A stretch of 64,000 nt of DNA from a virus. Location: IMG/VR virus record IMGVR_UViG_3300021431_002079, positions 1,975 through 65,974 of that record, one strand, 5' to 3'. The notes beneath the pieces were generated by a model. It was not told the origin of the DNA. It saw only the letters and a list, made by a program, of their open reading frames with translations, and searched no databases. Numbering within the stretch: the stretch's first letter is position 1; every line of letters starts with the position of its first letter. A program made the translations under genes and the position numbers. This document shows, piece by piece, positions 42,713 to 62,654 of this stretch.

Positions 42713-45241
42713 ATGAAAACAATATATATAACATTACTTTGTATTTTATTAAATTTTACACCTATAAATTTTATACCTGTAAATTCTCAGACTCGTGCAG
42801 AAATGTCAAGTCAACAATGGTGTGGAGTAATGGTTGACACAATTATTGGAAATGATAAGTATCCTGATGTTTTTGATAGAGACCCACAAGGCTTACCTAT
42901 TATATTATATAATGTTGGTACTGGATGTTTTATAACCCAAGGTGGAGATTGGGCTATGGAAGGTCGTCTATTTTATTCTGATTTTGGACGAACTATGTAT
43001 TTATGTAACAATGGACGTATAAACAGTGGTATTACTGAAAGAAATGTTAATGTTAAGAAGAATAGTTTTTGTGTAAGACCACCAGCACCATTTGGAAAAA
43101 ATTGGAATGACATTAAAAACATCAATTTCACTACGTTGATGGATGGTGAATATAGAAACGAAACTTTTCAAAAATGGGAATTTGAACGTATTGAAGGTGA
43201 AACTGGAGATACTTGCACATATTATATGTATCAGAAATTTAATACTAACACAAAATACTACTTTGGTGCTGTCTATGGGGAATACAACGGTGACAAGGGT
43301 GTTGGGCAATTAATATTTCTTGATGATGATCGTTCTTGTTGGACAACAGCACCAGTTAAAGGTGTAACAACAAAATATCAATTAGAAAATGGAGATGAAG
43401 TCGAATTACAAAAACTTTATCAATGGCGCTTAGTTTCCATCGAAGAATTTTTAAGAGTATTAAATAGTGATGAAGCTGGATTAAATCCAAGTGTATCAGC
43501 ATTGATACCAGATAGAGATTTTACTCGTAATGCTATTGATTTCTTTAGTGAAAATCCTAATCATGGTTGGACAATATGCCGTTTAGCTAATCATACATAT
43601 AAAGATGGTGATGATAAACGTTATCCATACACATGGGGTAACTATAAGATGGGATCTGATGTTAATAGTAACAAACAACGTTCAAGAGAATTATTAGAGG
43701 AATCATGGGATTCTCCTGTAAGATTAAAGGCTGTATTTGATGCTGATATAACCCAAGAACGTGGTAAGAAAGATGCTAAATATGGGTTTATGGAATTTGA
43801 AGGTGTTGGATATATTTATTCAAATTTCAAAGTAACTAAACCAGGTTGGTATGAAATAACTTCTATTGCGATTAATCAAAGTGATAATAACGATGCACAT
43901 ATGTTTGCTCGTGTAATAGATGATGCAGATAGTCTAAAACAAGAAAATGAATTTGAAATACCAATAACAGATATACCAAGTTATAGTAGTATTGAATTAG
44001 ATAAAGTATCATTAGGAACATATAAAAAAGGATACGATAATAATGGAAAAGATGGATATGAGAATTGTTTAGTTATGGGTAAAGAATTACTTGCCAATGG
44101 TGAAGTTCATCAAAGAAAAGTTTGGGTATTAGTTTCTGAAAAGGATTTTAATGATGGTAAGAAAACAATTCGTGTAGGTATTAGGAAAGATAATGCTACA
44201 ATGTCTAATAAAACTAATGGTGGTTATTATGACTTAGATTGGGTATGTGTAGATGATATACGTGCAATATATATGGGTATGTCTCCAGCATTCTTTTATG
44301 AAGACATGGAAACTTTAAATTACCTTGATGATATAAATCACGAGGATCTTTACTTAGCTAATGAATACCCAAAACGTGGTCCTGAAGGTGAGTATGGAGG
44401 AGCTGTTAGTATACAACGTAAGTTCACTAATAATGAATGGAATACATTTTCATTTATATTACCATTAACTGGAGAACAAATTCGTAATGCATTTGGTGAT
44501 AAAACTGAATTATTAGAATTAGTTGGTATTGGTACATTATCAAATAATGAAAATATTATTGATTTTAAAACAGTTAATTTAATAACATTAGATCATGTTG
44601 TTGTACCAGGAAAACTTTATATGATTAAACCATCAAAGTTACCAGTGTATGGTGAAAGTCCTCGTAAGACAAGGGCGTACTATTATGACTTAGGTAGAAT
44701 GTTTTTCTCAATTAAATCTGAACCACAAGAGTATAAATATCCTGTTATAGATTTAACAAAGTTACCATATAAGAGTACTGATGTTGGTTCATATCAAGGT
44801 AGAAATAATGGAACAGAACATGTGACATACATTCAAACTCCAAATTACAGTAATTTTAGAGTTGATAGATATGGGAATGTGATGGCTAAAGTTAATGCTG
44901 TAGATAGTACATATGCACCAAAAGGAGCTTATGTAATGAGTGGTGGAAAAATGTATGAATTAGCTAAAGATACTCCACTTAAAGGATTCCGTGGATGGAT
45001 AACATTAACCCATAGCATATTTGCAAATAGTAGTGCAGCTGCTTTAGGAACACCATTTTCAATAAATGGTATATTTGATCAAGATGAAACCCCAATAGAA
45101 ACTGACACAAAAATAATTACATCTATAAAAAACACCAATACATCAATATATGATATAACTGGTAAAAAGATTACTAATTCAATTAACTCTTTATCACCGG
45201 GTTTATATATCGTAAATGGAAAAAAATTACTTATAAAATAA
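42713..45241 (+). CDS. secreted protein (842 aa) with Sec signal peptide and T9SS (Por) C-terminal sorting domain
   Basis: N-terminus MKTIYITLLCILLNFTPINFIPVNSQT (signal peptide); C-terminus ...NTNTSIYDITGKKITNSINSLSPGLYIVNGKKLLIK matches the Por_Secre_tail pattern (vYDlxGrxV...LxxGiYivk...kk). Confidence 0.7.
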   Translation: MKTIYITLLCILLNFTPINFIPVNSQTRAEMSSQQWCGVMVDTIIGNDKYPDVFDRDPQGLPIILYNVGTGCFITQGGDWAMEGRLFYSDFGRTMYLCNNGRINSGITERNVNVKKNSFCVRPPAPFGKNWNDIKNINFTTLMDGEYRNETFQKWEFERIEGETGDTCTYYMYQKFNTNTKYYFGAVYGEYNGDKGVGQLIFLDDDRSCWTTAPVKGVTTKYQLENGDEVELQKLYQWRLVSIEEFLRVLNSDEAGLNPSVSALIPDRDFTRNAIDFFSENPNHGWTICRLANHTYKDGDDKRYPYTWGNYKMGSDVNSNKQRSRELLEESWDSPVRLKAVFDADITQERGKKDAKYGFMEFEGVGYIYSNFKVTKPGWYEITSIAINQSDNNDAHMFARVIDDADSLKQENEFEIPITDIPSYSSIELDKVSLGTYKKGYDNNGKDGYENCLVMGKELLANGEVHQRKVWVLVSEKDFNDGKKTIRVGIRKDNATMSNKTNGGYYDLDWVCVDDIRAIYMGMSPAFFYEDMETLNYLDDINHEDLYLANEYPKRGPEGEYGGAVSIQRKFTNNEWNTFSFILPLTGEQIRNAFGDKTELLELVGIGTLSNNENIIDFKTVNLITLDHVVVPGKLYMIKPSKLPVYGESPRKTRAYYYDLGRMFFSIKSEPQEYKYPVIDLTKLPYKSTDVGSYQGRNNGTEHVTYIQTPNYSNFRVDRYGNVMAKVNAVDSTYAPKGAYVMSGGKMYELAKDTPLKGFRGWITLTHSIFANSSAAALGTPFSINGIFDQDETPIETDTKIITSIKNTNTSIYDITGKKITNSINSLSPGLYIVNGKKLLIK

Positions 45242-45518: not shown

Positions 45519-46202
45519 ATGTTAAATATAAACACATATATAAACGAGAAACTTAACATATCCACCAAGTACACCTGTAAACCAAAAGATAAATATGAGC
45601 TTAGAGATATAATAGAAAAACGTCTTGAGAAAGATAAAGATGTAGACTTAAATGATATAGATGTGTCAGATATAACAGATATGTCAATTTTATTCTGGAA
45701 ATTAGACCCTCATAATATAGACATAAGTGAGTGGAATGTTTCAAAAGTTAAAAGCATGGAGAGTATGTTTTTTAGTTGTAAAAACTTTAATTGTGACTTA
45801 AGCAATTGGAATGTCTCTAATGTTTATAATATAACATCTATGTTTAGTGAATGTGAAAGTTTTAATTCAGATTTAAGTAACTGGGATGTTTCGAATGTTA
45901 TAAACATAGATAGCATGTTTGACAATTGTAAAAAATTTAATTGTGATTTAAGTAGTTGGAATGTCTCAAAAGTTAAAAATATGTCTTGTATGTTTTTAAA
46001 TTGTGAAAACTTTAATTCAGATATAAGTGAATGGGATGTCTCAAAAGTTACAGAGATGAGATACATGTTTTATAATTGTAAAAATTTTAATTTTGACTTA
46101 AGTGGTTGGGATGTCTCAAATGTTAAAGATATGACAAAAATGTTTGAAGGTTGTACATCATTAAAAAATAAACCTAACTGGTACCATGAAGAAGATAACT
46201 AA
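45519..46202 (+). CDS. DUF285 / 26-residue-repeat protein with leader (array 2, copy 1; 7 repeats)
   Basis: MLNINTYINEKLNIS; 227 aa. Confidence 0.7.
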   Translation: MLNINTYINEKLNISTKYTCKPKDKYELRDIIEKRLEKDKDVDLNDIDVSDITDMSILFWKLDPHNIDISEWNVSKVKSMESMFFSCKNFNCDLSNWNVSNVYNITSMFSECESFNSDLSNWDVSNVINIDSMFDNCKKFNCDLSSWNVSKVKNMSCMFLNCENFNSDISEWDVSKVTEMRYMFYNCKNFNFDLSGWDVSNVKDMTKMFEGCTSLKNKPNWYHEEDN

Positions 46203-46716
46203 TTACATACAAGAAAAACTAAATTTATCTAAGTACACTTGTAAACCAAAAGATAGATTAGAACTTTTAAGTATAATAGAAAGACGTCTTGAACGAAATA
46301 AAGATGTAGATTTTAATGACATTGATGTATCAGATATAACGGATATGTCTTTTCTATTTGAAGAATTAGATCCCCATAATATAGATATAAGCGAGTGGAA
46401 TGTTTCAAAAGTTGAAGATATGAGGAGTATGTTTAACGGGTGTGAAAATTTTAATTGTGATTTATCTGAGTGGGATGTCTCAAATGTTAAACACATGAAC
46501 CAAATGTTTAAAAATTGTAAAAACTTTAATTCAGATTTAAGTAGCTGGAATGTATCACAAATTAAATATATGTTTGATATGTTTGATGGGTGTAAAAAAT
46601 TTAATTCAGATTTAAGTGGATGGAATGTATCTAATGTTAAAGATATGTCAGATATGTTTGATGGATGTAATTCGTTAAAAAATAAACCAAATTGGTACAA
46701 TGAAAAAACTAAATAA
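46186..46716 (+). CDS. DUF285 / 26-residue-repeat protein with leader (array 2, copy 2)
   Basis: MKKITNYIQEKLNLS; 17-nt overlap with previous gene. Confidence 0.7.
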   Translation: MKKITNYIQEKLNLSKYTCKPKDRLELLSIIERRLERNKDVDFNDIDVSDITDMSFLFEELDPHNIDISEWNVSKVEDMRSMFNGCENFNCDLSEWDVSNVKHMNQMFKNCKNFNSDLSSWNVSQIKYMFDMFDGCKKFNSDLSGWNVSNVKDMSDMFDGCNSLKNKPNWYNEKTK

Positions 46717-47221
46717 TTACATACAAGAAAAACTAAATTTATCTAAACACATTATTAAACCAAAAGATTCAGATGAACTTAGACATATAATAAAGGAACG
46801 TCTTAAAAAAGATAAAGATGCAGATTTAAATGATATAGATGTATCAGGTATAACAGATATGTCATATTTATTTAATAATTTAGACCCTCACAATATAGAT
46901 ATAAGTGAATGGGATGTCTCTAATGTTATAAACATGAGCAAAATGTTTTTTTATTGTGAAAATTTTAATACCGATTTAAGTGGGTGGGATGTTAGTAATG
47001 TTAAAAATTTTTGGTTTACATTTTATGAATGTTACAATTTTAATTCTGATTTAAGTAATTGGGATGTATCACATGCTCAAGATATATCTTATATGTTTTA
47101 TGGGTGTAAAAAAATTGATTGTGATTTAAGTGATTGGGATATATCAAATATTAAATATATGGATGGTACATTTAATGGATGTAATTCGTTAAAAAATAAA
47201 CCAAGTTGGTATAAGAACTAA
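46700..47221 (+). CDS. DUF285 / 26-residue-repeat protein with leader (array 2, copy 3)
   Basis: MKKLNNYIQEKLNLS; 32 nt identical to the 5' end of 46186. Confidence 0.7.
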   Translation: MKKLNNYIQEKLNLSKHIIKPKDSDELRHIIKERLKKDKDADLNDIDVSGITDMSYLFNNLDPHNIDISEWDVSNVINMSKMFFYCENFNTDLSGWDVSNVKNFWFTFYECYNFNSDLSNWDVSHAQDISYMFYGCKKIDCDLSDWDISNIKYMDGTFNGCNSLKNKPSWYKN

Positions 47222-48068: not shown

Positions 48069-48584
48069 ATGGAATGGTATAATATTTTATTTTATACAGT
48101 AATTGGTATATTTATAATTAAAACTATTTTTTCTTGGTGTGTAGGGGAATTCGATATTGATGTAGATATTGACGGAGATGATGACATGGATGTGTCTAGT
48201 CTTTTGTCTTTTAAGAGTGTACTACATTTCTTGATAGGTTTTAGCTCCGTACTTTATGGAGAAGCTCATGTATCACCAGAGTCATTGCCGTTTACAATTG
48301 GAGATTATATCTTTGCAGTTGTTACAGGTTTTGTTTTTATGGGTGTATTGTATTTTGCTTACAAACTTGTAATGAAAGCAGATAATTATTCAAAAGATCC
48401 ACATGATTTAATAGATAATTGTTATGGAATAATATATCTCAATCTTGGTGATAATAATTATTCTGTTGAAGCACATACACCAGCTGGAACTGTTAATGTT
48501 AACGCAACATCAGAAAATAGTAATTTAAAAGTTGGTGATAATGTTAAATTAAAAGTTGAAAATAACAATATTATAATTATATAA
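48069..48584 (+). CDS. NfeD-like membrane protein (SPFH partner)
   Basis: N-terminal TM helices (ILFYTVIGIFIIKTIF; FLIGFSSVLYG; FAVVTGFVFMGVLYFAY) and C-terminal beta/OB-like NLKVGDNVKLKVENNNIII, directly upstream of the SPFH gene as in bacterial nfeD-floT/yuaF-yuaG operons. Confidence 0.5.
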   Translation: MEWYNILFYTVIGIFIIKTIFSWCVGEFDIDVDIDGDDDMDVSSLLSFKSVLHFLIGFSSVLYGEAHVSPESLPFTIGDYIFAVVTGFVFMGVLYFAYKLVMKADNYSKDPHDLIDNCYGIIYLNLGDNNYSVEAHTPAGTVNVNATSENSNLKVGDNVKLKVENNNIIII

Positions 48585-48609
48585 GTTTAATTTTAAGTAA
48601 TTTTTAAAA

Positions 48610-50724
48610 ATGAGTACATTAGTTTTAACAGGTTTAATTGGATTTGCGGCATTAATATTTGTCGTAACCGTATGGGGAATTCTTTCTCGTTATCGTAGAA
48701 GTGCACCAGATGAACTTTTGGTTGTATTCGGTAAGTCTGGAAAGATTCAAGTAACAGGTGAAGATGGTAAACAGCAAACATTGGTTGTACCATCAAAGAT
48801 TATTCAAGGTGGAGGTACATTTGTTTGGCCTATTATTCAGGATTGGAAAAAGATGTCAATGAAGCCTATTCAGATTAAGGCAACAGTTGACGGTATTGAT
48901 TCTCAGGCTATTCAATTACACTTACCAGTAGTATTAACAACAGCAATTTCTCGTGATAAGGAAATTCAACAGAATGCAGCTACTCGTTTCTTGAGTGCTA
49001 CTGCTGATGAGATTGAATCACAGATTAAGGAAATCTTGATTGGTGAAACTCGTGCTATTATGGCGACAATGCTTATTGAGGAAATTAACGCTGACCGTGA
49101 TAAGTTCTTGACAAAGGTTCGTACAAACCTTGAACAGGAGTTGACAAAGATTGGTTATGATGTTACAAATATTAACATATCAGAAATTACCGATGATGCC
49201 AACTATATTAAGAACATGGGTCAGAAAGCTACAACTCGTAAGCAAGCTGAAGCTGAGGCAGATATCGCTGAACAAAGAAAGACAGGTAATGTAAAGATTG
49301 CTAATACAAAGAAGGAAGAGGAAATTCAGGTTGCTGCTGCTGAAAAGGAAAAGCAAGTAACGGTTAATCAGACTCGTCAGGAGCAGGAAGTACAGGTTGC
49401 TGCTATTGAAAGAGATAAGCAAATTCAGTTGGCAGAAGCTGAGAAGGAACGTGAATCTGGTATTGCTGACCAGGAAGCAGAAAAGGCATCTCGTATTGCT
49501 AATGCACAGGCATTGGCAGAATCAAAGAAGGCAGAAGCTAAGGCAAAGCAGATTGCAAGTGTATCTGCCGCAGAGGCAGATGCTGCATCAAAACAGGCTG
49601 AAGCTGATGCCAGAAAAGTAGCCGCTGTTGCCGCTCGTAAGGCTGAAGCTGAATCTGCAAAGGCTAAATCTGAAGCTGAACAGACTAAGGCAATTGCAAC
49701 ATCACAGGCAGATGCTGAAGCAACAGAGAACGAACAGGAAGCAAAGAAGCAAACTCGTATTGCACAAGCTAATCAGGCTAAGGAAGCAGAAATTGTAAAG
49801 GCAACTCAAGAGAAGGAATCTAAGGCCGCTGAGTATGAATCTGAGAAACGTAAGCGTAAGGCTGAGGCTGATAAGAAAGCTGGTGTTGCAGAACAGATAG
49901 CAAAGATTGAGGTAGCCCAAGCTACAGCTAAGGCAGGTCAAGCTGAAGCAGATGCAAAGAAGATTAAGGAAACCGCAATGGTTGATGCTGAAATGTCAGT
50001 TGCAAAGACTCGTCAAGAAAGACAGATAGAAGTTAATAAGGCACAAGCTAAGGCTGCTGAAGAGCAATTGAATGCTACCGAGATTGTACCTGCACAAAAG
50101 GCAAAGGAAAAGGCCGTTATTGAAGCAGAAGCAATTAAGCGTAAGGCAGAACTTGAAGCTGAAGCAGTTAAGGCAAAGTTACTTCGTGAAGCTGAAGCAG
50201 AAGCAGAAGCAACTCGTATTAAGTTGAATGCTGAAGCTGAAGGCACAAAGAATAAGTTGATGGCAGAAGCCGAAGGTAAGCGTGCAAGTTTGCTTGCTGA
50301 AGCAGAAGCAATACAGCAAAAGGAATTAGCACCTGCTATGGCTCTTGAAAGAATGGTTGCTGCAGTTGGTGGAAATCCTGACCTTGTTGTTCAGTATAAG
50401 ATGGTTGACCAATATAAGGGTATTGCTGAAGCACAGAGTCATGTCTTGGAGCATCTAAATCTTGGTCAAGTTACAGTTTATGGTGATAAGAACACTGGCG
50501 CTGATTTTGCTAAGAGTTTCATTGAAAAATTTGCTCCAGCATTAACTATGATTAATAGTGGTGTTAAGGATCAATTCAAAGGATTATTTGAAATTGGACA
50601 AAAATCAAATGCATTAAATGGCCCTAAGGATCCAGATCCTGATGGAAATGATGGTGGTTCAAATAAAAAGACTACTAAAAAGTCAAAGAAAGATGTTGAG
50701 CCAATTTTTGAGGAAGCAAAATAA
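48610..50724 (+). CDS. SPFH/band-7 flotillin-like protein (YqiK/FloT-like) with long A/E/K-rich coiled coil
   Basis: N-terminal TM LVLTGLIGFAALIFVVTVWGIL + SPFH-like core (YRRSAPDELLVVFG...QTLVVPSKIIQGGGTFVWPIIQ...), about 400-aa EA-repeat coiled coil, basic C-terminal tail. Confidence 0.65.
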   Translation: MSTLVLTGLIGFAALIFVVTVWGILSRYRRSAPDELLVVFGKSGKIQVTGEDGKQQTLVVPSKIIQGGGTFVWPIIQDWKKMSMKPIQIKATVDGIDSQAIQLHLPVVLTTAISRDKEIQQNAATRFLSATADEIESQIKEILIGETRAIMATMLIEEINADRDKFLTKVRTNLEQELTKIGYDVTNINISEITDDANYIKNMGQKATTRKQAEAEADIAEQRKTGNVKIANTKKEEEIQVAAAEKEKQVTVNQTRQEQEVQVAAIERDKQIQLAEAEKERESGIADQEAEKASRIANAQALAESKKAEAKAKQIASVSAAEADAASKQAEADARKVAAVAARKAEAESAKAKSEAEQTKAIATSQADAEATENEQEAKKQTRIAQANQAKEAEIVKATQEKESKAAEYESEKRKRKAEADKKAGVAEQIAKIEVAQATAKAGQAEADAKKIKETAMVDAEMSVAKTRQERQIEVNKAQAKAAEEQLNATEIVPAQKAKEKAVIEAEAIKRKAELEAEAVKAKLLREAEAEAEATRIKLNAEAEGTKNKLMAEAEGKRASLLAEAEAIQQKELAPAMALERMVAAVGGNPDLVVQYKMVDQYKGIAEAQSHVLEHLNLGQVTVYGDKNTGADFAKSFIEKFAPALTMINSGVKDQFKGLFEIGQKSNALNGPKDPDPDGNDGGSNKKTTKKSKKDVEPIFEEAK

Positions 50725-50745
50725 AATATTAATTTTAACTATTAA

Positions 50746-50781
50746 AAAATGAGCAATTTTTAAAATTGCTCATTTTTTTTG
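50746..50781 (+). terminator. rho-independent terminator
   Basis: stem aaaatgagcaatttt / aaaattgctcatttt then T8. Confidence 0.65.
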
Positions 50782-51531: not shown

Positions 51532-53280
51532 ATGACAAACAAACGTTGCTTGATATATGAAACTTTGGGAAGTGTTTCAAATCTTGAAGTGTTTGAAGGT
51601 AAAGGCGATGGTTTAATGCGTTTGCATGGTGTTTTTGGTGTATGTGGTGTAAAGAATCAAAATAATCGTGTTTATGATAAAACTAATTATGGACAGATGG
51701 TTGAAGCTTTACAACAGAAAATTAAAGAATCAGGTTGTCCTGGTGAATTGGAACATCCAAATTCAATGAATATTAATCTTGAAAATGTTTCACACAAGAT
51801 TGAGGAAATTAAAATGAATGAAGATGGTACAGTAACAGGTACAATAGTTCTTTTAAATACCCCAAAAGGTCAAATAGCTAAAGCTATTGTTGAAGGTGGT
51901 TTACCACTATTTATTTCATCACGTGGTGCTGGTACAATTACTAATGAAGGACGTGTAACTTTATCTTCAATTCAAACGTATGACTTAGTTGGTACTCCTG
52001 GTTTTAGTCAAGCTAAATTAACTTTAAAGACAAATCAGACTTTAGAATGTCTTAATGAAGGTCTTGATGAAGGAAATGCAGTTTGGGCAATTGTCGAAGG
52101 TGAAGATTCTACAGATGATTTATTATCAGATGATGACGACGATAAAAAGAAAGAAGATAAGTCTGATGATAAAAAGGAAGAAGATTCTAGCAAATCAGAC
52201 GATAAGAAAGATGACGATAAGTCAGATGACAAATCAGATGAAGAAGACAAAAAACCAAAAGACAAAAAACCAAAGAAGGAAAACTCTGATAAAGAAGATA
52301 ACAAAAATAATGATGAAGATATTAATATGAAAGATCTTAAAGATGCTATAGATAAGTTATCTGAAAAGGTAACTACTCTTGAAAGTGAACTTCATGTAGC
52401 TCAAGAATCTTTAAAGGAATGTAAGTCAGTTGAACCAGTAAACTACAAAGCAATAGAACGTTGGGTTAATCAAGAATTTTCTCCAAGTTTTATGAATCAA
52501 GTTGAAGAATGTATTGATGACAAAATTTCTGAAGCTGAAATGAACACAAAAATCATGATAGATGATAAAGTATCTGAATCTTTAACTAATGTATGTGAAG
52601 GTGTTCAATCTTGGATTACTAAAGAATTTGCTCCAGAAGTACAAAACTGGATTACTGAAGAATTTGCTCCAGAAGTACAAAATTGGATCACTGAAGAATT
52701 TGCTCCAGAAGTACAAAACTGGGTATGTGAAGAATTCTCTCCAGAAGTACAAAACTGGATCACTGAAGAATTTGCTCCAAAAGTACAAGACTGGATTACT
52801 GAAGAATTTGCTCCAGTTGTTGAAGGTTGGGTTAATGAAGAATTCTCTCCAGAAATTCAAAACAAAGTAAATGAAAATGTTTCTGCATTTATGGAATCAC
52901 AAAAGGCAGGACGTTTAGATGAAATTGATAGCTTATTAGAATCAATTGAATCAAGTGGTAATAATGTTGATGTAAACAATATTATTAAAGAACAACAAAC
53001 TGCTAATAAATTCGCTGGTATTTATTGTGTAGATAATATGCCTGCTGAATATGCTCCAAAATGGAATACATTAACTGAAAGTCGTCAACAAGAAATTGTT
53101 AGATCTTCAAAGATGTATGATTTCACAAAAGAAGGTGTTTTAGAATCATTCTGGTCTAGTATTGATTTTGAAAAAGTTAACGAATCTAAGGAAACTAATG
53201 TTTTCGAAAATGATCCTATTTACAAATATCAAAACAATATTATTAAGCATATGAAATCACTACGTGGTTATAATGTATAA
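51532..53280 (+). CDS. gp21: prohead protease (T4 gp21-like) fused to acidic scaffold-like region with tandem repeats
   Basis: N-terminal about 190 aa (LMRLHGVFGVCGVKNQNNRVYDK...GELEHPNS...ISSRGAG) resembles T4 gp21 (GxFGVFGExNxNxRxYP ... GELxHP ... STRG); then a D/K/E low-complexity spacer, a coiled coil and a 7x 12-aa repeat. Confidence 0.6.
   Translation: MTNKRCLIYETLGSVSNLEVFEGKGDGLMRLHGVFGVCGVKNQNNRVYDKTNYGQMVEALQQKIKESGCPGELEHPNSMNINLENVSHKIEEIKMNEDGTVTGTIVLLNTPKGQIAKAIVEGGLPLFISSRGAGTITNEGRVTLSSIQTYDLVGTPGFSQAKLTLKTNQTLECLNEGLDEGNAVWAIVEGEDSTDDLLSDDDDDKKKEDKSDDKKEEDSSKSDDKKDDDKSDDKSDEEDKKPKDKKPKKENSDKEDNKNNDEDINMKDLKDAIDKLSEKVTTLESELHVAQESLKECKSVEPVNYKAIERWVNQEFSPSFMNQVEECIDDKISEAEMNTKIMIDDKVSESLTNVCEGVQSWITKEFAPEVQNWITEEFAPEVQNWITEEFAPEVQNWVCEEFSPEVQNWITEEFAPKVQDWITEEFAPVVEGWVNEEFSPEIQNKVNENVSAFMESQKAGRLDEIDSLLESIESSGNNVDVNNIIKEQQTANKFAGIYCVDNMPAEYAPKWNTLTESRQQEIVRSSKMYDFTKEGVLESFWSSIDFEKVNESKETNVFENDPIYKYQNNIIKHMKSLRGYNV
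52612..52863 (+). repeat. 7 tandem copies of a 36-bp in-frame repeat (W[IV]TEEF[AS]PEVQN)
   Basis: direct reading: tggattactgaagaatttgctccagaagtacaaaac x7 with few substitutions. Confidence 0.9.
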
Positions 53281-53366: not shown

Positions 53367-55139
53367 TTGAATATAAATAATATGTTTATTAACGAACAAA
53401 ATGGCGCAGTTACATGGGAAAAGATGTTGAAGGAAAACTTCAATGTTAATGACCAGGAAAAACTTAACTGGGTTTCTCAATATGCTGCAATTCATGAAAT
53501 TCATGAATCACAAATCGGTGTTAATGGTAATGCAGTTGCTGTTAGTACAGCTCAACCTGGTGTTGGTCCAATGTATGCAACTCCATTGAATACAACTGGT
53601 ATGGGTAACCCTTATGCACCAAGTCAACTTAGTACAACAAGTACAGCACCTTATGATGCTACTAATCCAACAGGTTCATTCTGGGGTCAAACTCCAGGTT
53701 CTGGTGATATACCAGTATCTACACTTCCAATGGCTCTTAACATTGCATTGTTAACTATTGGTCTTGAACTTGTTCCAGTAATTCCTTCAAAAGGTCCTTG
53801 GGCATTATTAACATATATGGATTTCCCTTATGCTGGTGGTAAACTTGGACGTGTTAATGAAACTTCATTTGACGGTAAGGGTGAAGGTAATGAGAACAAA
53901 CCAATCTATGTTAAGATTAAAGGTTTAACACTTTCACAAATCAAAGAATTACGTGAAAGTAATGAAGCTGTTGCTGATGCTATAGTAACTGTTGGTGATT
54001 TCACAGGTAAGTGGATCGCATTCGGTCGTATGGATGCTTGCCCTCTTGTTAAGGTTGTTAGTGTTGCTAAAAAGGACAATCAAGATCAATCTCTTGCTGA
54101 AGCATTTGATGCTGCTAAAACTGTTGTAGTTGGTGGAAAGACAATTACACTTGATACAGAGACAAATCAAAAGGTTACTCCTGATTTCGTGCAAACTTCT
54201 GTAGACCTTGTTGATGGTTTCGCAAACTTCGCTACTGGTAAGAAAGAAGCAATGACACGTGCTCAAAACGAAACTGGTACAGGTAATACAATCGGTCTTC
54301 GTTTATTCAGTAAATGGATTCAAATGGGTTCATACGAAGTTACTGGTACAGTTACTCGTCAACAACTTCAAGATCTTCCACTTTATGGTGTTGATGCTGT
54401 ATCTAAGGTTATGGAAGCACTTCAAAACGAAATCTCTCAACACATTAACCAACGTATCCTTGAAAGAGTATTCGCTCTTGGTGTTACTAACGCTGTACAA
54501 CAAAAGGCACGTCAAGGTGTAGACCTTAACTTATGGATGGGTAAATCAGGTGATGTTGATTTCGCAGATGCATTCCCAGGTGTTCCACACTTCACAGATA
54601 TTTATGGACACGATTTCAAAGCTGACTGGGGTAATGTTAAGAATGCTGAAGTTAATACATCTGCTGAAAACTTATCTACTCGTCAACGTCGTATCATGTC
54701 TAAGGTGCTCGCTGCTGCTAACTTAATCCAATTAGTTGGTCGTCGTGGTCGTCCTACATGGATCGTAACAAGTGGTCAAGTTGCTACTGCATTACAAGAT
54801 GTATCAGGTTATGTTGTTGCTCCAATGCTTAACACATTATCTCAATCTAACACTCAAAACCTTTACCACGCTGGTACAATCGCTGGTCTTCAAGTTTATG
54901 TAGACCCATACATGGATTGGAACGATACTCGTATCTGTATTGGTCGTAAGGGTGATGGTAACTCACCAGGTGTTATATTCATGCCTTATATACTTGCAGA
55001 CACAGTTTCTATTACTGCAGAAGGTACAATGGCACCTAAGATGCTTGTTAACAGCCGTTATACTATTGCTGAAGCTGGATTCTATCCAGAGTTGCAATAT
55101 TTCACAATTGCTGTTGGTTCTGAATTTGGTATTATCTAA
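53367..55139 (+). CDS. gp23: major capsid protein, T4 gp23-like
   Basis: C-terminal half aligns by eye to T4 gp23: TWIVTSGQVATALQDV ~ NFIIASRNVVNVLASV; GLQVYVDPYMDWNDTRICIGRKGDGNSPGVIFMPYILA ~ GKYRVYIDQYAKQDYFTVGYKGPNEMDAGIYYAPYVAL; N-terminal propeptide contains I-x-E sites (IHEIHE); real start could be the Met at 53382. Confidence 0.85.
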   Translation: MNINNMFINEQNGAVTWEKMLKENFNVNDQEKLNWVSQYAAIHEIHESQIGVNGNAVAVSTAQPGVGPMYATPLNTTGMGNPYAPSQLSTTSTAPYDATNPTGSFWGQTPGSGDIPVSTLPMALNIALLTIGLELVPVIPSKGPWALLTYMDFPYAGGKLGRVNETSFDGKGEGNENKPIYVKIKGLTLSQIKELRESNEAVADAIVTVGDFTGKWIAFGRMDACPLVKVVSVAKKDNQDQSLAEAFDAAKTVVVGGKTITLDTETNQKVTPDFVQTSVDLVDGFANFATGKKEAMTRAQNETGTGNTIGLRLFSKWIQMGSYEVTGTVTRQQLQDLPLYGVDAVSKVMEALQNEISQHINQRILERVFALGVTNAVQQKARQGVDLNLWMGKSGDVDFADAFPGVPHFTDIYGHDFKADWGNVKNAEVNTSAENLSTRQRRIMSKVLAAANLIQLVGRRGRPTWIVTSGQVATALQDVSGYVVAPMLNTLSQSNTQNLYHAGTIAGLQVYVDPYMDWNDTRICIGRKGDGNSPGVIFMPYILADTVSITAEGTMAPKMLVNSRYTIAEAGFYPELQYFTIAVGSEFGII

Positions 55140-55191: not shown

Positions 55192-55233
55192 CAAAAAATG
55201 AGAGTGATAACTTCGGTTATCACTCTTTTTTTA
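55192..55233. terminator. bidirectional terminator hairpin (A6-stem-loop-T7)
   Basis: aaaaaa tg agagtgataa cttcgg ttatcactct ttttttt; overlaps the stop of the minus-strand gene 55220-56446. Confidence 0.65.
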
Positions 55234-56446
55234 GCCATTCTTTTAGATCTTTTATATTAAAAAATTCTAAGTAATTTAATTTATTTTCTTTAGCAGTATT
55301 TCGTTTTTTAACATCCATAATTGTCCATGTTATTATTGCACTTTTATAAAATTTTGTATTTTTTAACTCCCATATATTTTTCTTGTTTATATCTGCTTCA
55401 GTATTTTCAAATGGTTTAAGACCATGAGTCCACATATAATTGCATTCTATATATAAATCTAAACATGGAACATAGAAATCACAACGCCATGGATATTTAT
55501 CACTTTTGTATTGCCTTATAACATCTGGATATTTTTCTTTTAACAATAAATAAGATTCATCTTCAGGTTTTGATGTATTAAATGTTTTATTTTTATTTTT
55601 TGTATTTTGAATTTTATTAATAACACTTGATAATTTTGATGGATGTGTTACATTATATTTTTTAATATATGTGTTTTTTGTTTTTTCAATATTATTATAA
55701 TTTTCGTCTCCGTATTTATCTAGTTTTGTCTTTTTTATTTTTTCAGTGTTAATATAATAATATCCATATTTATCTATAATTGTTTTTCTAGCTTTATTTC
55801 TATTATTATAAGTAGCATCATTATATTTTTTAATTTTTGTTAAGAAAACTTTGTTTTTTATTTCATTTGAACTCATTGGAGAATTACCTCCAAATTTTTT
55901 TATATTTGTAGTTTTTCTTTTTATTTTTGATTCTTTTGTTTTAGCTGCTTCAATTCCTTTGTTGTGTATTTCTGTAATTTTTAATACAGATTCTTCCCCA
56001 TATCGTTTTAAATTAGTTTCCTTTGCTTTATTTGTATTGTTAAATGTCTTATCTCCATATTTTTCTAATTTTGTTTGTAATGTTTTTTGTATATTATTAC
56101 ATGACCCATATTTTTCTAATGATGTTATTTGTTGTTTTTTATAAACATTTGGATCTTTTTGACGACAAGATATTGAACAGTGTTTAGTAAATATCCCTTT
56201 ATTATTTGGTTTACCGATAAACTTTAATTTATTACCACACACTGGGCATTTTGGTCTATCATATATCTTATACACAATTCTTAATAAAGACTCATAAATA
56301 CTTTCACTATCATCAAATCTATTTAATAAATAGTTATAAATATTTCTATAACACTTTTGTTTTTGATTAAATCTTCTATAAGCTTTGGTTGAAGTATTGT
56401 TATCCCAAAATAGTTCACTTATTATGTTATCATGATTGTAATTCAT
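55220..56446 (-). CDS. homing-endonuclease-like protein with Zn ribbon and KYG(V)-type repeats (copy 1)
   Basis: CPVCGNKLKF...CSISC zinc ribbon; about 8 repeats of [LI]xKYGxxxxNNxxKxKxT (homing-endonuclease-associated repeat type); conserved C-terminal domain YKSDKYPWRCDFYVPCLDLYIECNYMWTHG...AKENKLNY shared with 56430 and 62630. Confidence 0.5.
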   Translation of the reverse strand: MNYNHDNIISELFWDNNTSTKAYRRFNQKQKCYRNIYNYLLNRFDDSESIYESLLRIVYKIYDRPKCPVCGNKLKFIGKPNNKGIFTKHCSISCRQKDPNVYKKQQITSLEKYGSCNNIQKTLQTKLEKYGDKTFNNTNKAKETNLKRYGEESVLKITEIHNKGIEAAKTKESKIKRKTTNIKKFGGNSPMSSNEIKNKVFLTKIKKYNDATYNNRNKARKTIIDKYGYYYINTEKIKKTKLDKYGDENYNNIEKTKNTYIKKYNVTHPSKLSSVINKIQNTKNKNKTFNTSKPEDESYLLLKEKYPDVIRQYKSDKYPWRCDFYVPCLDLYIECNYMWTHGLKPFENTEADINKKNIWELKNTKFYKSAIITWTIMDVKKRNTAKENKLNYLEFFNIKDLKEWLKKE

Positions 56447-57389
56447 TCACATATTCTCTTGCTTCATTAACATTCCACAATTCTTTATAATTTAATTTAT
56501 TTTCTTTTGCTATGTTTCTTTTTCTTACATCCAAATCCGTCCATGTATATATAATAGAATCATATTGAGTTCTTTTATTGTTATTATATTGTTTAAGCAA
56601 ATTAGATTTATTAATTAGATTATTTAATTCATTTTTATCTTCTATAGAATTTGTAAACGGTCTCCCATGATGAAAATGACTATAATTACATTCTATATAT
56701 AAATCTAAACTACATATATAGAAATCACAATTAAATGGATACTTATCTGAAGAGTACTGTCTTATTATATCTTTTTCATCAAATATTGTTTTTAATAATT
56801 CATATGTTTCTTCTTCTGGTTTAGATTTATTAAACTTACCATTTGCCTTTATTGTATTATTTCTTTTTTCTCTAATAGATTTAACAAACATTCCATTATA
56901 AACCCCATATTTGGTTTTCATACCATTTTGACGTTTAATTTCTATAATCTTACAAGCATTATCCCATGACCCATATTTTTTAGATAATGTGTCTTTTCTA
57001 TGTTGAATCTTTTCAGGAGTATTTATGTTCCACCCAAGTACACCATTATGTTTATTTCTATCTGTGTATTGTTTCTTTTTTATTGTATTTTTATTTTTTC
57101 CAGAACATCTATTTGAACAGAATGTTGCAAATAACTTATTACCTTTACCTATGAATTTTACTGGTTTACCGCACGTTTTACATACTGGGCGAATGTTACA
57201 ATTATGACGAATTCGATATAATGTTTCCTTAAAAGATTCAGAATCATCATACCGATTTTCAATATAATTAATTATGTTTTTATATTTTGTTTTTTTCTTA
57301 TAGTGTCTTTTATATTTATTTAAATAAGATTGATTAAAATGCCAATCATCAATAAAAAATATATTAGACAATATTTTATCATAGTTCAT
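56430..57389 (-). CDS. homing-endonuclease-like protein (copy 2, fewer repeats)
   Basis: CKTCGKPVKF...CSNRC; same C-terminal domain (YSSDKYPFNCDFYICSLDLYIECNY...AKENKLNY); 17-nt overlap with copy 1. Confidence 0.5.
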   Translation of the reverse strand: MNYDKILSNIFFIDDWHFNQSYLNKYKRHYKKKTKYKNIINYIENRYDDSESFKETLYRIRHNCNIRPVCKTCGKPVKFIGKGNKLFATFCSNRCSGKNKNTIKKKQYTDRNKHNGVLGWNINTPEKIQHRKDTLSKKYGSWDNACKIIEIKRQNGMKTKYGVYNGMFVKSIREKRNNTIKANGKFNKSKPEEETYELLKTIFDEKDIIRQYSSDKYPFNCDFYICSLDLYIECNYSHFHHGRPFTNSIEDKNELNNLINKSNLLKQYNNNKRTQYDSIIYTWTDLDVRKRNIAKENKLNYKELWNVNEAREYVNELQS

Positions 57390-58689
57390 TCTTATTTATT
57401 ACAACAATATATTCATAATTTTTTTTAAAATGAGAAGTATTAACTATTTCTTCTTTAATATATTTCTTATATTTATTTAACTTATCATCAGTAACAAAAA
57501 CATATCTTTCACAATCATAATTTTTTAAACATATATCTATCCATTTATCACATGAATAATTTAATGATTTTACACCAGGCCATTCCTCAATATCTTCATA
57601 AGGAGAACATGTAAATAAACATTCATATTTTCCAGTTTCTTTTGTTGAATCTTTTTTAGAAATTACTGCAGAGTTACTAGTGTATTTTGATAAAAATTCA
57701 TATATTTCATTTGATTCATCAACGGAGTATTCACATAAATCTTGACCTATATAATTTTTATTAGATGCTAAACACCCAATCATTCTACCACTATAACCAC
57801 TAAATGGATCAAATATTGTATTAAACTTATTGAGATATTTTTCAATTATATATTTTGCAAGTTTTGGTTTAAAATATGTAACATGTGGAAACATACGAGA
57901 TGATGATAAACCAGCTCCATAACTATTTTCCATAAATACACCTCTCAAAAAATATATTAATCGTCCTTGTCCTTTAAACCAATCACTATATCTTAATCTA
58001 TTTCTATAAAATGATTTAAATACTTCAGGGTCATTTTGAATTAATTTCCACCCTTCGTATGGAGATATATTACCCTTTATGTTAGCTAATATTATACTCT
58101 GATGAAAATATGTAACTAAGTTTGATGAATACTTTGTTTTTAATTCTCCTGGATTTTTTTGAAGATTTTTAAACTCATTCTCGCATTTTTTCAATGTTGG
58201 TTGAATAAATGACAATGGAGGAAAATCTATATATTGAATTCTCTCATACTCGCGTTCCCAGAATTTTTCTACAATAATATCGCAAAATTCTTTAGAACAG
58301 TTACCTTTATATTTTTGTTGTGGTAATATATATTTCTTATCATATTCATATGCTTCATAAAATGATTTCAAATCTTTTAATTCAGAATCAAACCAAGATT
58401 CATCTATAATAGGATTACCATCATTATATATTATTTTTATATCACCAAACTCAACATCGTCATTTGAGTATAAACATTGAATCATCATATCCATTAAAAT
58501 ATGAGTTAATTGTTCTTTTGTTGGTAATTCCCAATGAATACATTCATCTTCTTCTAATTCAAACCATGTATCTAAATTATGCGATTCATAATTTGATGGA
58601 ATTGGTATTATGTACACTAAGTCATTAATTTTTTTCAATAATCCATCAATATTGTATTTAGTAATAATATCGTAAGCTTTATCTATCAT
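57379..58689 (-). CDS. hypothetical protein (436 aa), possible SAM-dependent methyltransferase
   Basis: IFDPFSGYSGRMIG resembles MTase motif I (DPFxGxG); TCSPYED weakly resembles motif IV ([DNS]PP[YF]); low certainty. Confidence 0.35.
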   Translation of the reverse strand: MIDKAYDIITKYNIDGLLKKINDLVYIIPIPSNYESHNLDTWFELEEDECIHWELPTKEQLTHILMDMMIQCLYSNDDVEFGDIKIIYNDGNPIIDESWFDSELKDLKSFYEAYEYDKKYILPQQKYKGNCSKEFCDIIVEKFWEREYERIQYIDFPPLSFIQPTLKKCENEFKNLQKNPGELKTKYSSNLVTYFHQSIILANIKGNISPYEGWKLIQNDPEVFKSFYRNRLRYSDWFKGQGRLIYFLRGVFMENSYGAGLSSSRMFPHVTYFKPKLAKYIIEKYLNKFNTIFDPFSGYSGRMIGCLASNKNYIGQDLCEYSVDESNEIYEFLSKYTSNSAVISKKDSTKETGKYECLFTCSPYEDIEEWPGVKSLNYSCDKWIDICLKNYDCERYVFVTDDKLNKYKKYIKEEIVNTSHFKKNYEYIVVINKNEL

Positions 58690-58872: not shown

Positions 58873-61800
58873 ATGGCAATTCCAGTACATTTGCAGCAAT
58901 TTAAAGCTGCAGGTATATACCGAGTAGTATTTGATCACTCTTCTATTGTTAATGAAGATACTCAAACATTACGTTTGGTTGTTGGTTATTCTGATAAAGG
59001 TCCTTTCAATGTACCTGTATTAGTTAAAGACCCATACGTTTTCAAATCAATATTCGGTGATATATCTAAACGATTAGAGAAACGTGGAATATTCTTCCAT
59101 CATCTTGCTCTTCAAATGTTACAAGTAAGTCCAATTCTATGTCTTAATCTTAAGAAATTTGATGGTGAAACAGTTCAAGCAGCTACTATTAGTACAGAAT
59201 TTAACAGTAAGTCCGGTATTATTGATACTGTAACACTTAATGTTGAAGATATTTATGACACAACTAGATTCTGGACACTTGATGCAGAAAAATTAAATGG
59301 ATTACGTACTGTTGAAGGTTCAACATTAAATCAATTTATTAATATTTCTGCCACAAATGTTAAAGCTACTTCATGTACATATTTTATTCGTAAAGCTTCT
59401 GGTTCAAAAGTTTCTGGTTATAACATAACTGTTAATGATTGGTATTCAGATGAAGAAATTCCTGAATTCATGATTCCTTATAGAAATAATCTTGTATCAG
59501 ACTTCTTTGCTGAAATATATGTTTTCAGAGGTAAATTTGATGCTAAACAAGTTCTTTCATCAAGCACATTAAAGAATTACTTTATTGTTACTAATGATTT
59601 AGATGAAAACGGATTACAAGTCCTTAAACTTAAAGATAAAATTATTAATGCATTTGGTGATTCTGTAGATACACTTGATGAATTATATAAAGATGAAACA
59701 TCTGGTGCAATTGGTCATTATGTTGGTGCTATCATACCACAATTTAAGAATAAACAAGGTGCTTATGCATGTCTTGATGTTTTATTCAATAGCGATATTG
59801 ACCAACATAATATGATGATGTCATTTAATGATGAATTGATTGATGAAGAAGATATTAATTTAGATCTTTCTGGTCGTTCATTAATTCCAACCGATGATAA
59901 TAATAATAAATCAGTTAATTCTTCATTAAGTCTTAATAAGTTATTTAGTGGTGAAGCTACAACATCTGTTTTAGGAAATAATGTTGCTCCTGTCGTTGTT
60001 GATAAGACAACATTCTTAGCTAATGTTTATAATGTTGAAACTGGAACTCCAATTCAACAATTAAATAATGGTAAGACACGTATAACTGGTACACTTTATG
60101 TTAAAGGTTATCAAGAAAATACTGATACCGCTAGTGAAATCTTATTAAAACAAGTTGGCTCAAATACAACAGTTAAATTATATTTTGATACAGCCGATGG
60201 TGCTAAAGAAGCTGCTAAGAAATTGGGTGTAGTATTTGATGAAGATGGTAATCCTATCGATGAGAAAGGTACTTACTTCACTGCAGAAGGCGCATTTGAA
60301 AATGCTGAAGATCCATTATACGGACCTGCACAAGTAATTACTTCTATATCACGTCTTGAAAACAAAACTGAAAATAATGATGGCATAGAGTATACAGATA
60401 TTGATGAAAATGCTAAACCAACATTAGTTGATGTTGAACCTGTAACAAAAGTTGTTTATACAAATCCTAACACTGAAAATTCTGTTTATGGTTCTTCAGT
60501 ATCATTCTTAGATTATAATGATGCTAACTGGGAATATAAAGAAGATGTTGAAATAATAAAAGGTGTTAAACAACCTGCATTTGTTTGTGATGAAGAATAT
60601 GATACAACACTTATAAGTATCCTTCAAAAGGGTGATTGCTTAGTTGGTGTTGATAATGCATATGACAAGGATAATGATGGAGATATTGAAAACGATAAGG
60701 ATGGATATTATGATACAGTAAATGTTCAAGACTTCGGCACTGTATATGATGAAAACGGTGACTTCAAGTTCCATTACATTATTGTTTCAGGTAAACCACA
60801 AGAATACCAAGATACATCTAATGCTAACAACAAATACTTAGTTCGTATCGATGCTGGTCTTAACCAAGAAATTGGTTCAATGGTCCCACAATATCTTGAA
60901 GGTTATACATATAAGAATTCACGTCCAATGGGAACAGGAATGTATGCAAAAGTAAAATGGCAAGAATTTATTCTTTCTGCAATTACTGATTATAAAGGTC
61001 TTCGTACTGCACTTCTTAGTAAGTCAGAAGTTGATTATCGTTATGTAATAGATACATTCGCATCATACCCTGTATCTAACCTTAAGAATGTGCTTTCTTA
61101 CTTATGTAAAGAAAAACAATCAGCATTCTGTATTTCAAACTTCCCTGCAGTTAAAGATTTCATTAAGTGTCCTTACACATCATTCACTGATTCTAAGGGT
61201 ATCTTCAATGTTGATTATATTATCAAGGGATATAATAAGAAGAAAGCTGCATCTGTAATGTTCAGCTTACCAACAGAAAATGATGGTGCTTCATTCATAG
61301 CATTCTATACACCACTTAAATTCACTGATGGTTATATTGATACATTAGTTCCTGCTGCAGGTTTAGTATCTAACTTATTCATTAATAAGTACATTTCACG
61401 TCAACCATATTATATCGTTGCTGGTCCAAACTACGGACGTATTACAGCACCTGGTTTAATTGGTCCTGACTATAAATACTCTGCTGATGAATTACAACTT
61501 ATCGAACCATTTGGTGTTAACGTTATGGTTTACCGTCCTAACTTCGGTACATTCATTAATGCTAACCAAACTGCAAAACAAACTCCTGTTTCTGCACTTT
61601 CTAAAGTTAATGTTCGTGAGTTAGTTATTTATCTCCAAGATGAAATTGAAAAAGTTCTTCAAGCTTATCAATGGGAGTTCAACAATACTCGTACTCGTAA
61701 CGCTATACTTGATAGAGCAAATCAAATCTGTTCTATTATAGCTGCTAATGGTGGTATTCAAGCTTATAGAAATATTATGGATGAATCTAATAACACTCCT

Positions 61801-61926
61801 GATATCATCGATAATGAAATGGCTGTTATTACTACTCATATTGAGCCTGGTATGGGTTGTGGTAAGATGGTACAAGAACTTCATATTTGGAGAACTGGTC
61901 AAATGGATGCTAATATTATAGATTAA
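58873..61926 (+). CDS. gp18: tail sheath protein, T4 gp18-like (1017 aa)
   Basis: C-terminal region aligns by eye to T4 gp18: KVNVRELVIY ~ RINVRRLFNM; QWEFNNTRTRNAIL ~ LFELNNAFTRSSFR; MDESNNTPDIIDNEMAVITTHIEP ~ CDTTNNTPSVIDRNEFVATFYIQP; TATAAATA 13 nt upstream. Confidence 0.8.
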   Translation: MAIPVHLQQFKAAGIYRVVFDHSSIVNEDTQTLRLVVGYSDKGPFNVPVLVKDPYVFKSIFGDISKRLEKRGIFFHHLALQMLQVSPILCLNLKKFDGETVQAATISTEFNSKSGIIDTVTLNVEDIYDTTRFWTLDAEKLNGLRTVEGSTLNQFINISATNVKATSCTYFIRKASGSKVSGYNITVNDWYSDEEIPEFMIPYRNNLVSDFFAEIYVFRGKFDAKQVLSSSTLKNYFIVTNDLDENGLQVLKLKDKIINAFGDSVDTLDELYKDETSGAIGHYVGAIIPQFKNKQGAYACLDVLFNSDIDQHNMMMSFNDELIDEEDINLDLSGRSLIPTDDNNNKSVNSSLSLNKLFSGEATTSVLGNNVAPVVVDKTTFLANVYNVETGTPIQQLNNGKTRITGTLYVKGYQENTDTASEILLKQVGSNTTVKLYFDTADGAKEAAKKLGVVFDEDGNPIDEKGTYFTAEGAFENAEDPLYGPAQVITSISRLENKTENNDGIEYTDIDENAKPTLVDVEPVTKVVYTNPNTENSVYGSSVSFLDYNDANWEYKEDVEIIKGVKQPAFVCDEEYDTTLISILQKGDCLVGVDNAYDKDNDGDIENDKDGYYDTVNVQDFGTVYDENGDFKFHYIIVSGKPQEYQDTSNANNKYLVRIDAGLNQEIGSMVPQYLEGYTYKNSRPMGTGMYAKVKWQEFILSAITDYKGLRTALLSKSEVDYRYVIDTFASYPVSNLKNVLSYLCKEKQSAFCISNFPAVKDFIKCPYTSFTDSKGIFNVDYIIKGYNKKKAASVMFSLPTENDGASFIAFYTPLKFTDGYIDTLVPAAGLVSNLFINKYISRQPYYIVAGPNYGRITAPGLIGPDYKYSADELQLIEPFGVNVMVYRPNFGTFINANQTAKQTPVSALSKVNVRELVIYLQDEIEKVLQAYQWEFNNTRTRNAILDRANQICSIIAANGGIQAYRNIMDESNNTPDIIDNEMAVITTHIEPGMGCGKMVQELHIWRTGQMDANIID

Positions 61927-62615: not shown

Positions 62616-62654
62616 AGAAAAAATGGAAATCATTTATTTGATTTCCATTTTTTA
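62616..62654. terminator. bidirectional terminator hairpin
   Basis: aaaaa-aatggaaatca-tttatt-tgatttccatt-tttttt; overlaps the 3' end of the minus-strand gene 62630-63709. Confidence 0.55.

Follow-up and report, generated by a model that had tools for sequence, protein, structure and literature searches.

The flotillin operon of a megaphage

Why would a phage carry a flotillin operon, a membrane-organizing system of its bacterial hosts? The question is raised by a 64,000-nucleotide stretch of viral DNA (IMG/VR record IMGVR_UViG_3300021431_002079, positions 1,975 to 65,974; hereafter the window), which comes from a very large gut or rumen phage, or megaphage. On its plus strand, an open reading frame (ORF) for a small membrane protein of 171 amino acids (aa; 48069-48584) is followed, after a gap of 25 nucleotides (nt), by an ORF for a 704-aa protein with an SPFH domain (48610-50724). 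Our best explanation overall, to which we assign a probability of roughly 0.7, is that these genes form a phage-resident Bacteroidota flotillin operon, consisting of an NfeD2-type partner and a flotillin of the FloT/YqiK type, whose products would act as a membrane scaffold. The decisive evidence for the identity of the pair is its genomic context, and we describe the 2 proteins before turning to that context, to the origin of the pair and to its possible roles.

Assignment of the longer protein to the flotillins

The 704-aa protein matches the Pfam Band_7/SPFH profile (PF01145) at aa 34-223 with 75.4 bits, against a cutoff of 23.6, and the alignment covers profile positions 6-175 of 176. An earlier interpretation made from the letters alone (the sequence-only reading) had described an N-terminal transmembrane helix, an SPFH core and a coiled coil of about 400 aa rich in Ala, Glu and Lys, while allowing that the supposed core might prove to be low-complexity coiled coil without a Band-7 domain; the match spans the whole profile, and the remainder of the description held as well. 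The sole NCBIfam match is the FloT model NF058507, with 122.6 bits against an equivalog cutoff of 700, and the chromosomal flotillins of Bacteroides likewise stay below that cutoff (141-153 bits). Given a score so far below the equivalog level, we regard the window protein as a flotillin at the level of the family and not as a FloT ortholog. When compared with all PDB sequences, it matches flotillin-1 and flotillin-2 alone at E < 0.001 (E 1e-17 to 1e-27), and these are its best matches among solved structures. A profile built from the phage clade scores 99 bits against flotillin-1, 93 against flotillin-2, 24 against QmcA and 19 against an archaeal (PH) stomatin, and finds no HflK/C chain in the PDB at E <= 0.01; a weak second alignment (16 bits) connects the flotillin profile with the C-terminal region of flotillin-1. 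In addition, the pair contains a single SPFH gene, its partner being no SPFH protein, so that there are no paired HflK-HflC genes. By these profile comparisons, the protein is assigned to the flotillin subfamily rather than to the stomatins, prohibitins or HflK/C.

The predicted architecture is in line with this assignment. Hydropathy exceeds 2.0 across aa 1-27, which are followed by the residues RYRR, and the AlphaFold model has a helix at aa 2-30; by the positive-inside rule, the bulk of the protein would be cytoplasmic and anchored by this N-terminal membrane helix. As the confidence of the model is low (predicted local distance difference test score, pLDDT, of 52), it was used for its secondary-structure pattern alone, which consists of the N-terminal helix, an alpha/beta SPFH core, a long helix, a small C-terminal domain at aa 591-660 and a disordered basic tail. 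The long helix is predicted to be nearly continuous over aa 197-585 (about 390 residues; 26% Ala, 17% Glu, 14% Lys) and exceeds the corresponding region of bacterial homologs by about 80-150 aa. Median flotillin lengths are 548 aa in bacteria, 566 in crAss-type phages, 653 in a phage group that we call PH2 and 685 in the huge-phage clade to which the window belongs. The main contribution to the difference is a coiled-coil insertion of about 80 aa at positions ~300-380 of the window protein, with further insertions at aa 41-60 and 561-580.

An NfeD2-like partner protein

The product of the upstream gene was identified from its AlphaFold model and its operon position. The model is confident (mean pLDDT 83, with C-terminal blocks at about 90) and shows 3 helices, at aa 3-25, 48-68 and 77-104, which hydropathy also marks as membrane helices, followed by a five-stranded OB barrel at aa 119-170; there is no protease domain, which makes this a short form. 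A small membrane protein with a C-terminal OB barrel ahead of the flotillin is what the sequence-only reading had proposed, and E. coli YqiJ has the same layout. Lys residues after the third helix favor, under the positive-inside rule, a cytoplasmic OB domain.

The term NfeD-like, which that reading had also used, stands in terms of fold, architecture, context and sub-threshold sequence signals, but not in terms of membership in an annotated family. The underlying searches point both ways: the missing curated matches, the nonsignificant YqiJ comparison and the borderline E for YuaF weigh against our interpretation, and the top rank of YuaF and the sub-threshold Pfam NfeD matches speak for it. 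The partner has no Pfam match at E <= 10 and no NCBIfam match at E <= 1, and its chromosomal orthologs in Bacteroides match neither Pfam NfeD nor any NCBIfam model. A profile of 94 family members searched against the PDB gave B. subtilis YuaF (2k14) as its top match, over the whole C-terminal domain, at a borderline E of 0.024, and an hhalign comparison of the family with E. coli YqiJ gave a nonsignificant E of 0.15. Thirty close relatives of the partner likewise have no Pfam or NCBIfam family. Pfam NfeD (PF01957) was matched by 5 of the 94 distant family members, with a best E of 6e-5, all of them under the gathering score of 29.1 bits (three of the five, scored singly, reached 15-19 bits). 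An exhaustive HMMER search collected 470 cluster representatives of the family. A jackhmmer search started from a YuaF fragment over a small family database was circular and was not used as evidence. The partner thus resembles NfeD2 proteins (YuaF, YqiJ) in fold, architecture and operon position, is borderline in sequence, and has no demonstrable membership in Pfam NfeD.

Failed profiles combined with a matching fold and context fit a known pattern. SPFH2 flotillins are found in operons with NfeD2 partners that have been described as "minimally conserved NfeD homologs", are recognized by structure and operon position, and are transferred laterally together with the flotillin (Hinderhofer et al. 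2009, PMC2636767). The B. subtilis yuaF(nfeD2)-floT(yuaG) and E. coli yqiJ-yqiK operons of this SPFH2/NfeD2 class (PMC2636767) have the same order as the window pair, with a small OB membrane protein preceding a flotillin in which an N-terminal anchor and the SPFH domain are followed by a long stretch of helix rich in Ala and Glu; here too, the partner is weakly conserved and known mainly by structure and operon position, and the pair is co-inherited and laterally transferred as one. The window pair differs in being borne by a phage and in its flotillin, which is 150-200 aa longer and 23% identical to YqiK.

It also differs in 2 conserved features of the partner, which together occupy aa 27-57. 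The loop after the first helix is acidic and near-invariant in the family (D27, D29, D31, D33, D35, D39) and includes a DxDxDG-like DVDIDG; the second membrane helix carries a conserved SFKG..HF..G motif with a Lys and a His. Their conservation suggests a cation- or lipid-binding site, of a kind undescribed for NfeD proteins.

Both assignments bear on the idea that the pair controls a membrane protease of the host, for example FtsH, and thereby stabilizes or destroys selected proteins of phage or host, in the way of HflK/C and stomatin/NfeD systems. Among SPFH proteins, HflK/C and YbbK/QmcA are interaction partners of FtsH, and a ClpP-type protease domain is present in some NfeD proteins (PMC2636767). 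The window protein, however, falls in the flotillin subfamily and not in HflK/C or the stomatins, its partner is of the short form that lacks a protease domain, and its predicted orientation is cytoplasmic, unlike that of the periplasmic HflK/C cage. We therefore consider protease regulation very unlikely.

The same operon in Bacteroidales chromosomes and in phages

For the genomic context, we collected 80 bacterial and 80 viral (IMG/VR) loci encoding flotillin relatives and scanned all of their ORFs with hidden Markov models (HMMs) of both families. Of the 78 chromosomal Bacteroidales loci with upstream sequence (from Bacteroides, Parabacteroides, Phocaeicola and Prevotella; one further locus, L070, starts too near the flotillin gene to be assessed), 77 have a gene of the partner family directly upstream of the flotillin gene and in the same orientation. 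All 80 viral loci have it in this position too, which bears out the conservation in related phages that the sequence-only reading had asked about. Since both proteins have hundreds of homologs and the 2 genes are adjacent in more than 150 independent loci, this is not a chance pair of ORFs; and since chromosomes and viruses have the same upstream partner, the pair represents the flotillin operon as it exists in Bacteroidota, which phages carry in its entirety. Pairwise distances among partners follow those among flotillins (Pearson 0.86, Spearman 0.92, Mantel p 0.001; 137 distinct pairs). Because common genome ancestry adds to such a correlation, it demonstrates co-inheritance of the 2 genes but not necessarily their physical co-adaptation. 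A DNA-level search with the pair against 50,697 phage records gave no match, and neither did a single-sequence tblastn search with the partner; the distribution was therefore established with profiles.

Chromosomal Bacteroidales operons, for example those of B. xylanisolvens XB1A (L033) and P. vulgatus ATCC 8482 (L053), have both genes homologous, adjacent and in the same order, with partners scoring 180-208 bits against the family HMM and flotillins 33-41% identical to that of the window. In contrast to them, the window flotillin has insertions, a phage-like codon composition and a place in a separate phage clade. The same two-gene unit occurs in phage csAssE-Sib (OR575929), where the genes are labeled "transmembrane protein" and "flotillin family protein" and their products are 28% (partner; E 5e-14) and 37% (flotillin) identical to those of the window. 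It differs in the bacterial length of its flotillin's coiled coil (566 aa in total), in belonging to the clade closest to the chromosomal copies, and in lying among replication genes.

No paper on phage-encoded flotillins was found in the literature. The view of the sequence-only reading that such proteins are rarely described is supported to that extent and needs qualification in another respect, as the GenBank records of csAssE-Sib, Vibrio phage KIT04 and Brevundimonas jumbo phages already contain genes labeled flotillin. A paper on phage Perkons was rejected as a precedent, as it concerns integration into a host floA gene. In KIT04, the flotillin gene is directly preceded by an 83-aa ORF (L002 3689-3937) with 3 hydrophobic segments, an acidic patch after the first of them and no OB domain, which may be a truncated analog of the partner; the ORF upstream of the Brevundimonas phage flotillin is unrelated to it.

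Several relatives have one to three small conserved genes between the NfeD-like gene and the flotillin gene (L004 6933-7980; L006/L007 8534-9041; L008; L088/L098; L099). In the relatives of the clade these encode two single-pass membrane peptides and a soluble protein of about 45 aa, with extra small ORFs in L004, and they may be additional components of the phage version of the system. No copies of them were found by tblastn elsewhere in the window, where the intergenic gap is only 25 nt. A 153-aa ORF upstream of the L004 flotillin was at one point taken for the partner and was ruled out, the true partner lying about 1 kb further upstream.

Two contigs binned into rumen metagenome-assembled genomes of "Methanobrevibacter" (L008, CACYVR010000057.1) and "Erysipelotrichaceae" (L048, CADBGE010000004.1) also carry phage-type flotillin genes. 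The flotillin of the former is 84% identical to that of the window, and that of the latter, which likewise has a partner, branches outside the Bacteroidales clade; in both cases a phage contig was probably binned wrongly.

Origin, residence and selection

The origin of the phage copies was approached with a neighbor-joining tree, which is crude, and with identities between groups. Flotillins of crAss-type phages, csAssE-Sib included, are sister to the chromosomal Bacteroidales clade (68% identity). The window flotillin groups with the huge-phage clade, whose members are 78-80% identical to one another; the PH2 group (contigs of 90-180 kb) is 47% identical to that clade, and the 2 together are 41-51% identical to bacterial flotillins. 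With phage copies in at least two clades, at least two separate captures are suggested, although a single capture with later rapid divergence may be an alternative. The chromosomal Bacteroidales operon is the probable source.

Could the pair nonetheless be a functionless passenger that came recently from the host, is decaying as a relic or arose as a chimera of assembly? Its local G+C content, 0.37 compared with about 0.27 in the flanks, might be taken to say so. The raised G+C of the flotillin gene, however, sits at codon position 1, because of its many Ala and Glu codons. At third codon positions (GC3), the flotillin gene has 0.26 and the partner gene 0.15, compared with 0.13-0.27 in the other genes of the window and 0.40-0.64 in Bacteroidales flotillins. 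This phage-like GC3 indicates that the pair has long been resident and is not a chimera. Both ORFs are intact, and the same gene order recurs in assemblies and samples that are independent of one another, as well as in dozens of related contigs, with flotillins 58-90% identical to that of the window across the clade (SPFH domains reach 91% in several genomes). We consider the passenger explanation largely refuted and its probability close to nil.

The strength of selection can be gauged against the capsid proteins of the same contigs, which are 60-84% identical; the partner is 34-51% identical across clade members. One lineage (L088/L098) is discordant, with 85% identity for flotillin and 64% for capsid. 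A first impression that the flotillin was far more conserved than the capsid protein (91% versus 64%, L088) was dropped, since more genomes gave 73-87% versus 63-84%. Judged by these identities, constraint on the flotillin is about equal to that on the major capsid protein. Together, phage-like GC3 and conservation at the level of the capsid indicate an old pair under purifying selection.

Genomic position and the head genes

In the window, the pair belongs to a long run of genes on the same strand and lies just upstream of the head genes, as the sequence-only reading had stated: 0.8 kb from a prohead protease gene (51532-53280; Peptidase_S77 / phrog_207, by Pfam and PHROG profile matches) and 2.6 kb from the gene for a Gp23-type major capsid protein (53367-55139, by profile match). 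A 207-aa ORF sits 3' of the flotillin gene, between it and the protease gene. That reading had further proposed that the pair has its own terminator, and a terminator-like hairpin was indeed found by a consensus scan at 50744-50778 on the plus strand, 20 nt 3' of the flotillin stop codon, with a 16-bp stem, a 3-nt loop and a T-run. Its folding energy is -16 kcal/mol (z = -4.8; 0 of 200 shuffled sequences were as stable), and it is predicted to end the transcription unit behind the flotillin gene in the manner of an intrinsic terminator. A separate promoter for the pair is not evident, the consensus scan giving signals at background level.

The proximity to head genes invites the idea that the flotillin cage is an inner-membrane platform for prohead assembly, nucleating or tethering the portal, the scaffold and the capsid initiation complex. 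T4 proheads begin at the membrane. Such a platform would explain both the position beside the protease and capsid genes and the coiled coil, which is longest in the huge-phage clade, and the 207-aa gene stays beside the flotillin gene in most clade members while adjoining the protease gene without the pair elsewhere. The adjacency itself, however, is not conserved, so that the implied link to head morphogenesis is not supported: the capsid gene is no more than 10 kb away from the pair in just 2 of 18 related capsid-centered loci, both from one lineage, and in the closest relatives the two are on the same contig but 14-18 kb apart. The neighbors of the pair are primase, helicase and exonuclease genes in csAssE-Sib; genes of methyltransferase, OmpA-like, sigma-factor, NADAR and formyltransferase type surround it in other lineages; and in L004 there are lysozyme genes nearby. 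Moreover, the terminator stands between the pair and the head genes, and Bacteroidales chromosomes carry the same operon without any capsid. We thus regard an assembly platform as decidedly unlikely. In other phage lineages with the pair (L173 1799-2854; L174 3145-4224), an OmpA-family protein, which is another host-like envelope component, is encoded a few genes upstream of it.

The same variability of position, which is reminiscent of morons, is among the points in favor of a role in conflict between phage and host or between phages, for instance in superinfection exclusion, or in protection of the membrane, where pore-forming effectors of abortive infection would be sequestered or their damage sealed. 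Independent capture of the operon, as the tree suggests it, and its retention by unrelated phage lineages are typical of accessory conflict genes, and in B. subtilis an SPFH protein connects the membrane-repair protein PspA to the membrane (PMC8581546). On the other hand, neither protein matches a PADLOC defense model at E <= 0.01, conservation at the level of the capsid is unlike that of fast-evolving conflict genes, and we see no contextual link to known defense or anti-defense genes. A conflict role accordingly seems to us improbable, to about the same degree as the assembly platform.

A proposed membrane scaffold during infection

We infer the working of the phage-resident flotillin operon as follows. 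The flotillin would be anchored in the inner membrane by its N-terminal helix, with the SPFH domain on the cytoplasmic face, and its long helical region, together with the C-terminal domain, would bring about oligomerization into a cage, shaped as a ring or a dome, that covers a patch of membrane. The 3 membrane helices of the partner would lie inside this patch, and its cytoplasmic OB domain would bind and stabilize the flotillin oligomer. Expressed during infection, the phage copy may supplement or replace the flotillin scaffold of the host, keeping the membrane and its proteins functional through the long and demanding infection cycle of a megaphage, by an ATP-independent holdase function or by an effect on fluidity. 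The scaffold may also concentrate membrane-associated proteins of the phage.

Several precedents make this arrangement plausible. Eukaryotic flotillins oligomerize into membrane-attached cages (PMC11260169; structures 9bq2/9l3g for flotillin-1/2). In S. aureus, a complex of FloA and NfeD, in which NfeD binds and stabilizes the oligomer, keeps unfolded proteins stable without ATP, a property of importance when cells are depleted of energy (PMC11222466). In B. subtilis, SPFH proteins further contribute to membrane fluidity (PMC7360373) and membrane repair (PMC8581546). Like these systems, the window pair would be an SPFH scaffold that oligomerizes on a membrane; by contrast, FloA is a short paralog of about 330 aa, and the eukaryotic flotillins have neither a transmembrane helix nor an NfeD partner. 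To the searches that count against our interpretation of the partner, 3 points therefore have to be added: the S. aureus precedent is based on FloA, another flotillin paralog and a shorter one; the proposed role in infection is an extrapolation from Firmicutes; and, with a flotillin pLDDT of 52, the geometry of a cage is unsupported by any model made here. On balance, upkeep of the membrane and of membrane proteins during a resource-draining infection appears to be the most likely benefit to the phage, and the assembly-platform, conflict and protease-regulation roles are less supported. Nor do the present results support the roles that the sequence-only reading had suggested, namely organizing a membrane microdomain for assembly, lysis timing and interference with membrane-associated host defense.

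A more far-reaching variant is that the megaphage clade has repurposed the captured cage into a phage-specific membrane organelle. It may draw on the coiled coil, which is about 80-150 residues longer, and on the two single-pass membrane peptides and the small soluble protein of the relatives. If it were true, a larger dome could compartmentalize prohead initiation, protect phage membrane proteins or seal the membrane against host suicide effectors, and such an organelle would be an undescribed viral use of an SPFH cage. We think this unlikely as things stand.

The window and its other genes

Profile searches with Pfam and PHROG show phage structural genes in the window, which has a G+C content of about 27%; in addition to the protease and capsid genes, these include a gene for a tail sheath (58873-61926, by profile match). 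Capsid proteins of uncultured huge phages, of Tenacibaculum and Sphingomonas jumbo phages and of Prevotella Lak megaphages share 30-37% identity with that of the window, and close relatives of the window are found on contigs, viral or metagenomic, that reach 435-460 kb.

Shortly before the flotillin region come 3 tandem paralogs with DUF285 repeats (45519-47221; PF03382, with 224, 164 and 151 bits), which have a conserved N-terminal segment of about 35 aa in common. They are preceded by an ORF of 842 aa (42713-45241) with an N-terminus resembling a signal peptide and no Pfam or PHROG match. The protease ORF is composite: its S77 domain at aa 29-152 is followed by a low-complexity linker rich in acidic residues and Lys, and by about six copies of a 12-aa tandem repeat of the type QNWITEEFAPEV. 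Pfam also gives weak matches to KilA-N and Trp-leader in or beside these repeats, which are probably spurious. Between and around the capsid and tail-sheath genes, 4 genes run on the reverse strand (55220-56446, 56430-57389, 62630-63709 and 57379-58689), comprising three DUF7487 paralogs and one DNA-methylase match. The G+C skew flips there, and these genes may be mobile insertions into the structural module.

Implications for phages and for flotillin biology

Operons of flotillin and NfeD are nearly universal in bacteria, and their physiological role is debated. The system described here belongs to the known SPFH2/NfeD2 operon class, and as a phage that keeps a membrane-organizing system of its host it is a real but moderately surprising case. 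What is new is how widely the pair is spread among Bacteroidota phages of gut and rumen, that the coiled coil is longer in the megaphage clade, and that the Bacteroidota partner family is unannotated in both Pfam and NCBIfam; as a further new point, the evidence suggests repeated capture of the complete operon and its retention under selection. For the Bacteroidales, which are the dominant gut bacteria, this means that the label NfeD2-like could be given to a family of flotillin partners comprising about 470 sequence clusters. For the phages, a membrane-organizing module joins the host-derived accessory genes of gut and rumen megaphages and of crAss-type phages. A phage that keeps the whole operon under strong selection, after what appear to be at least two captures in Bacteroidota phages, offers a natural gain-of-function context: as the scaffold must benefit the virus within a single infection cycle, hypotheses narrow to maintenance of the membrane and proteome, to scaffolding or to conflict.

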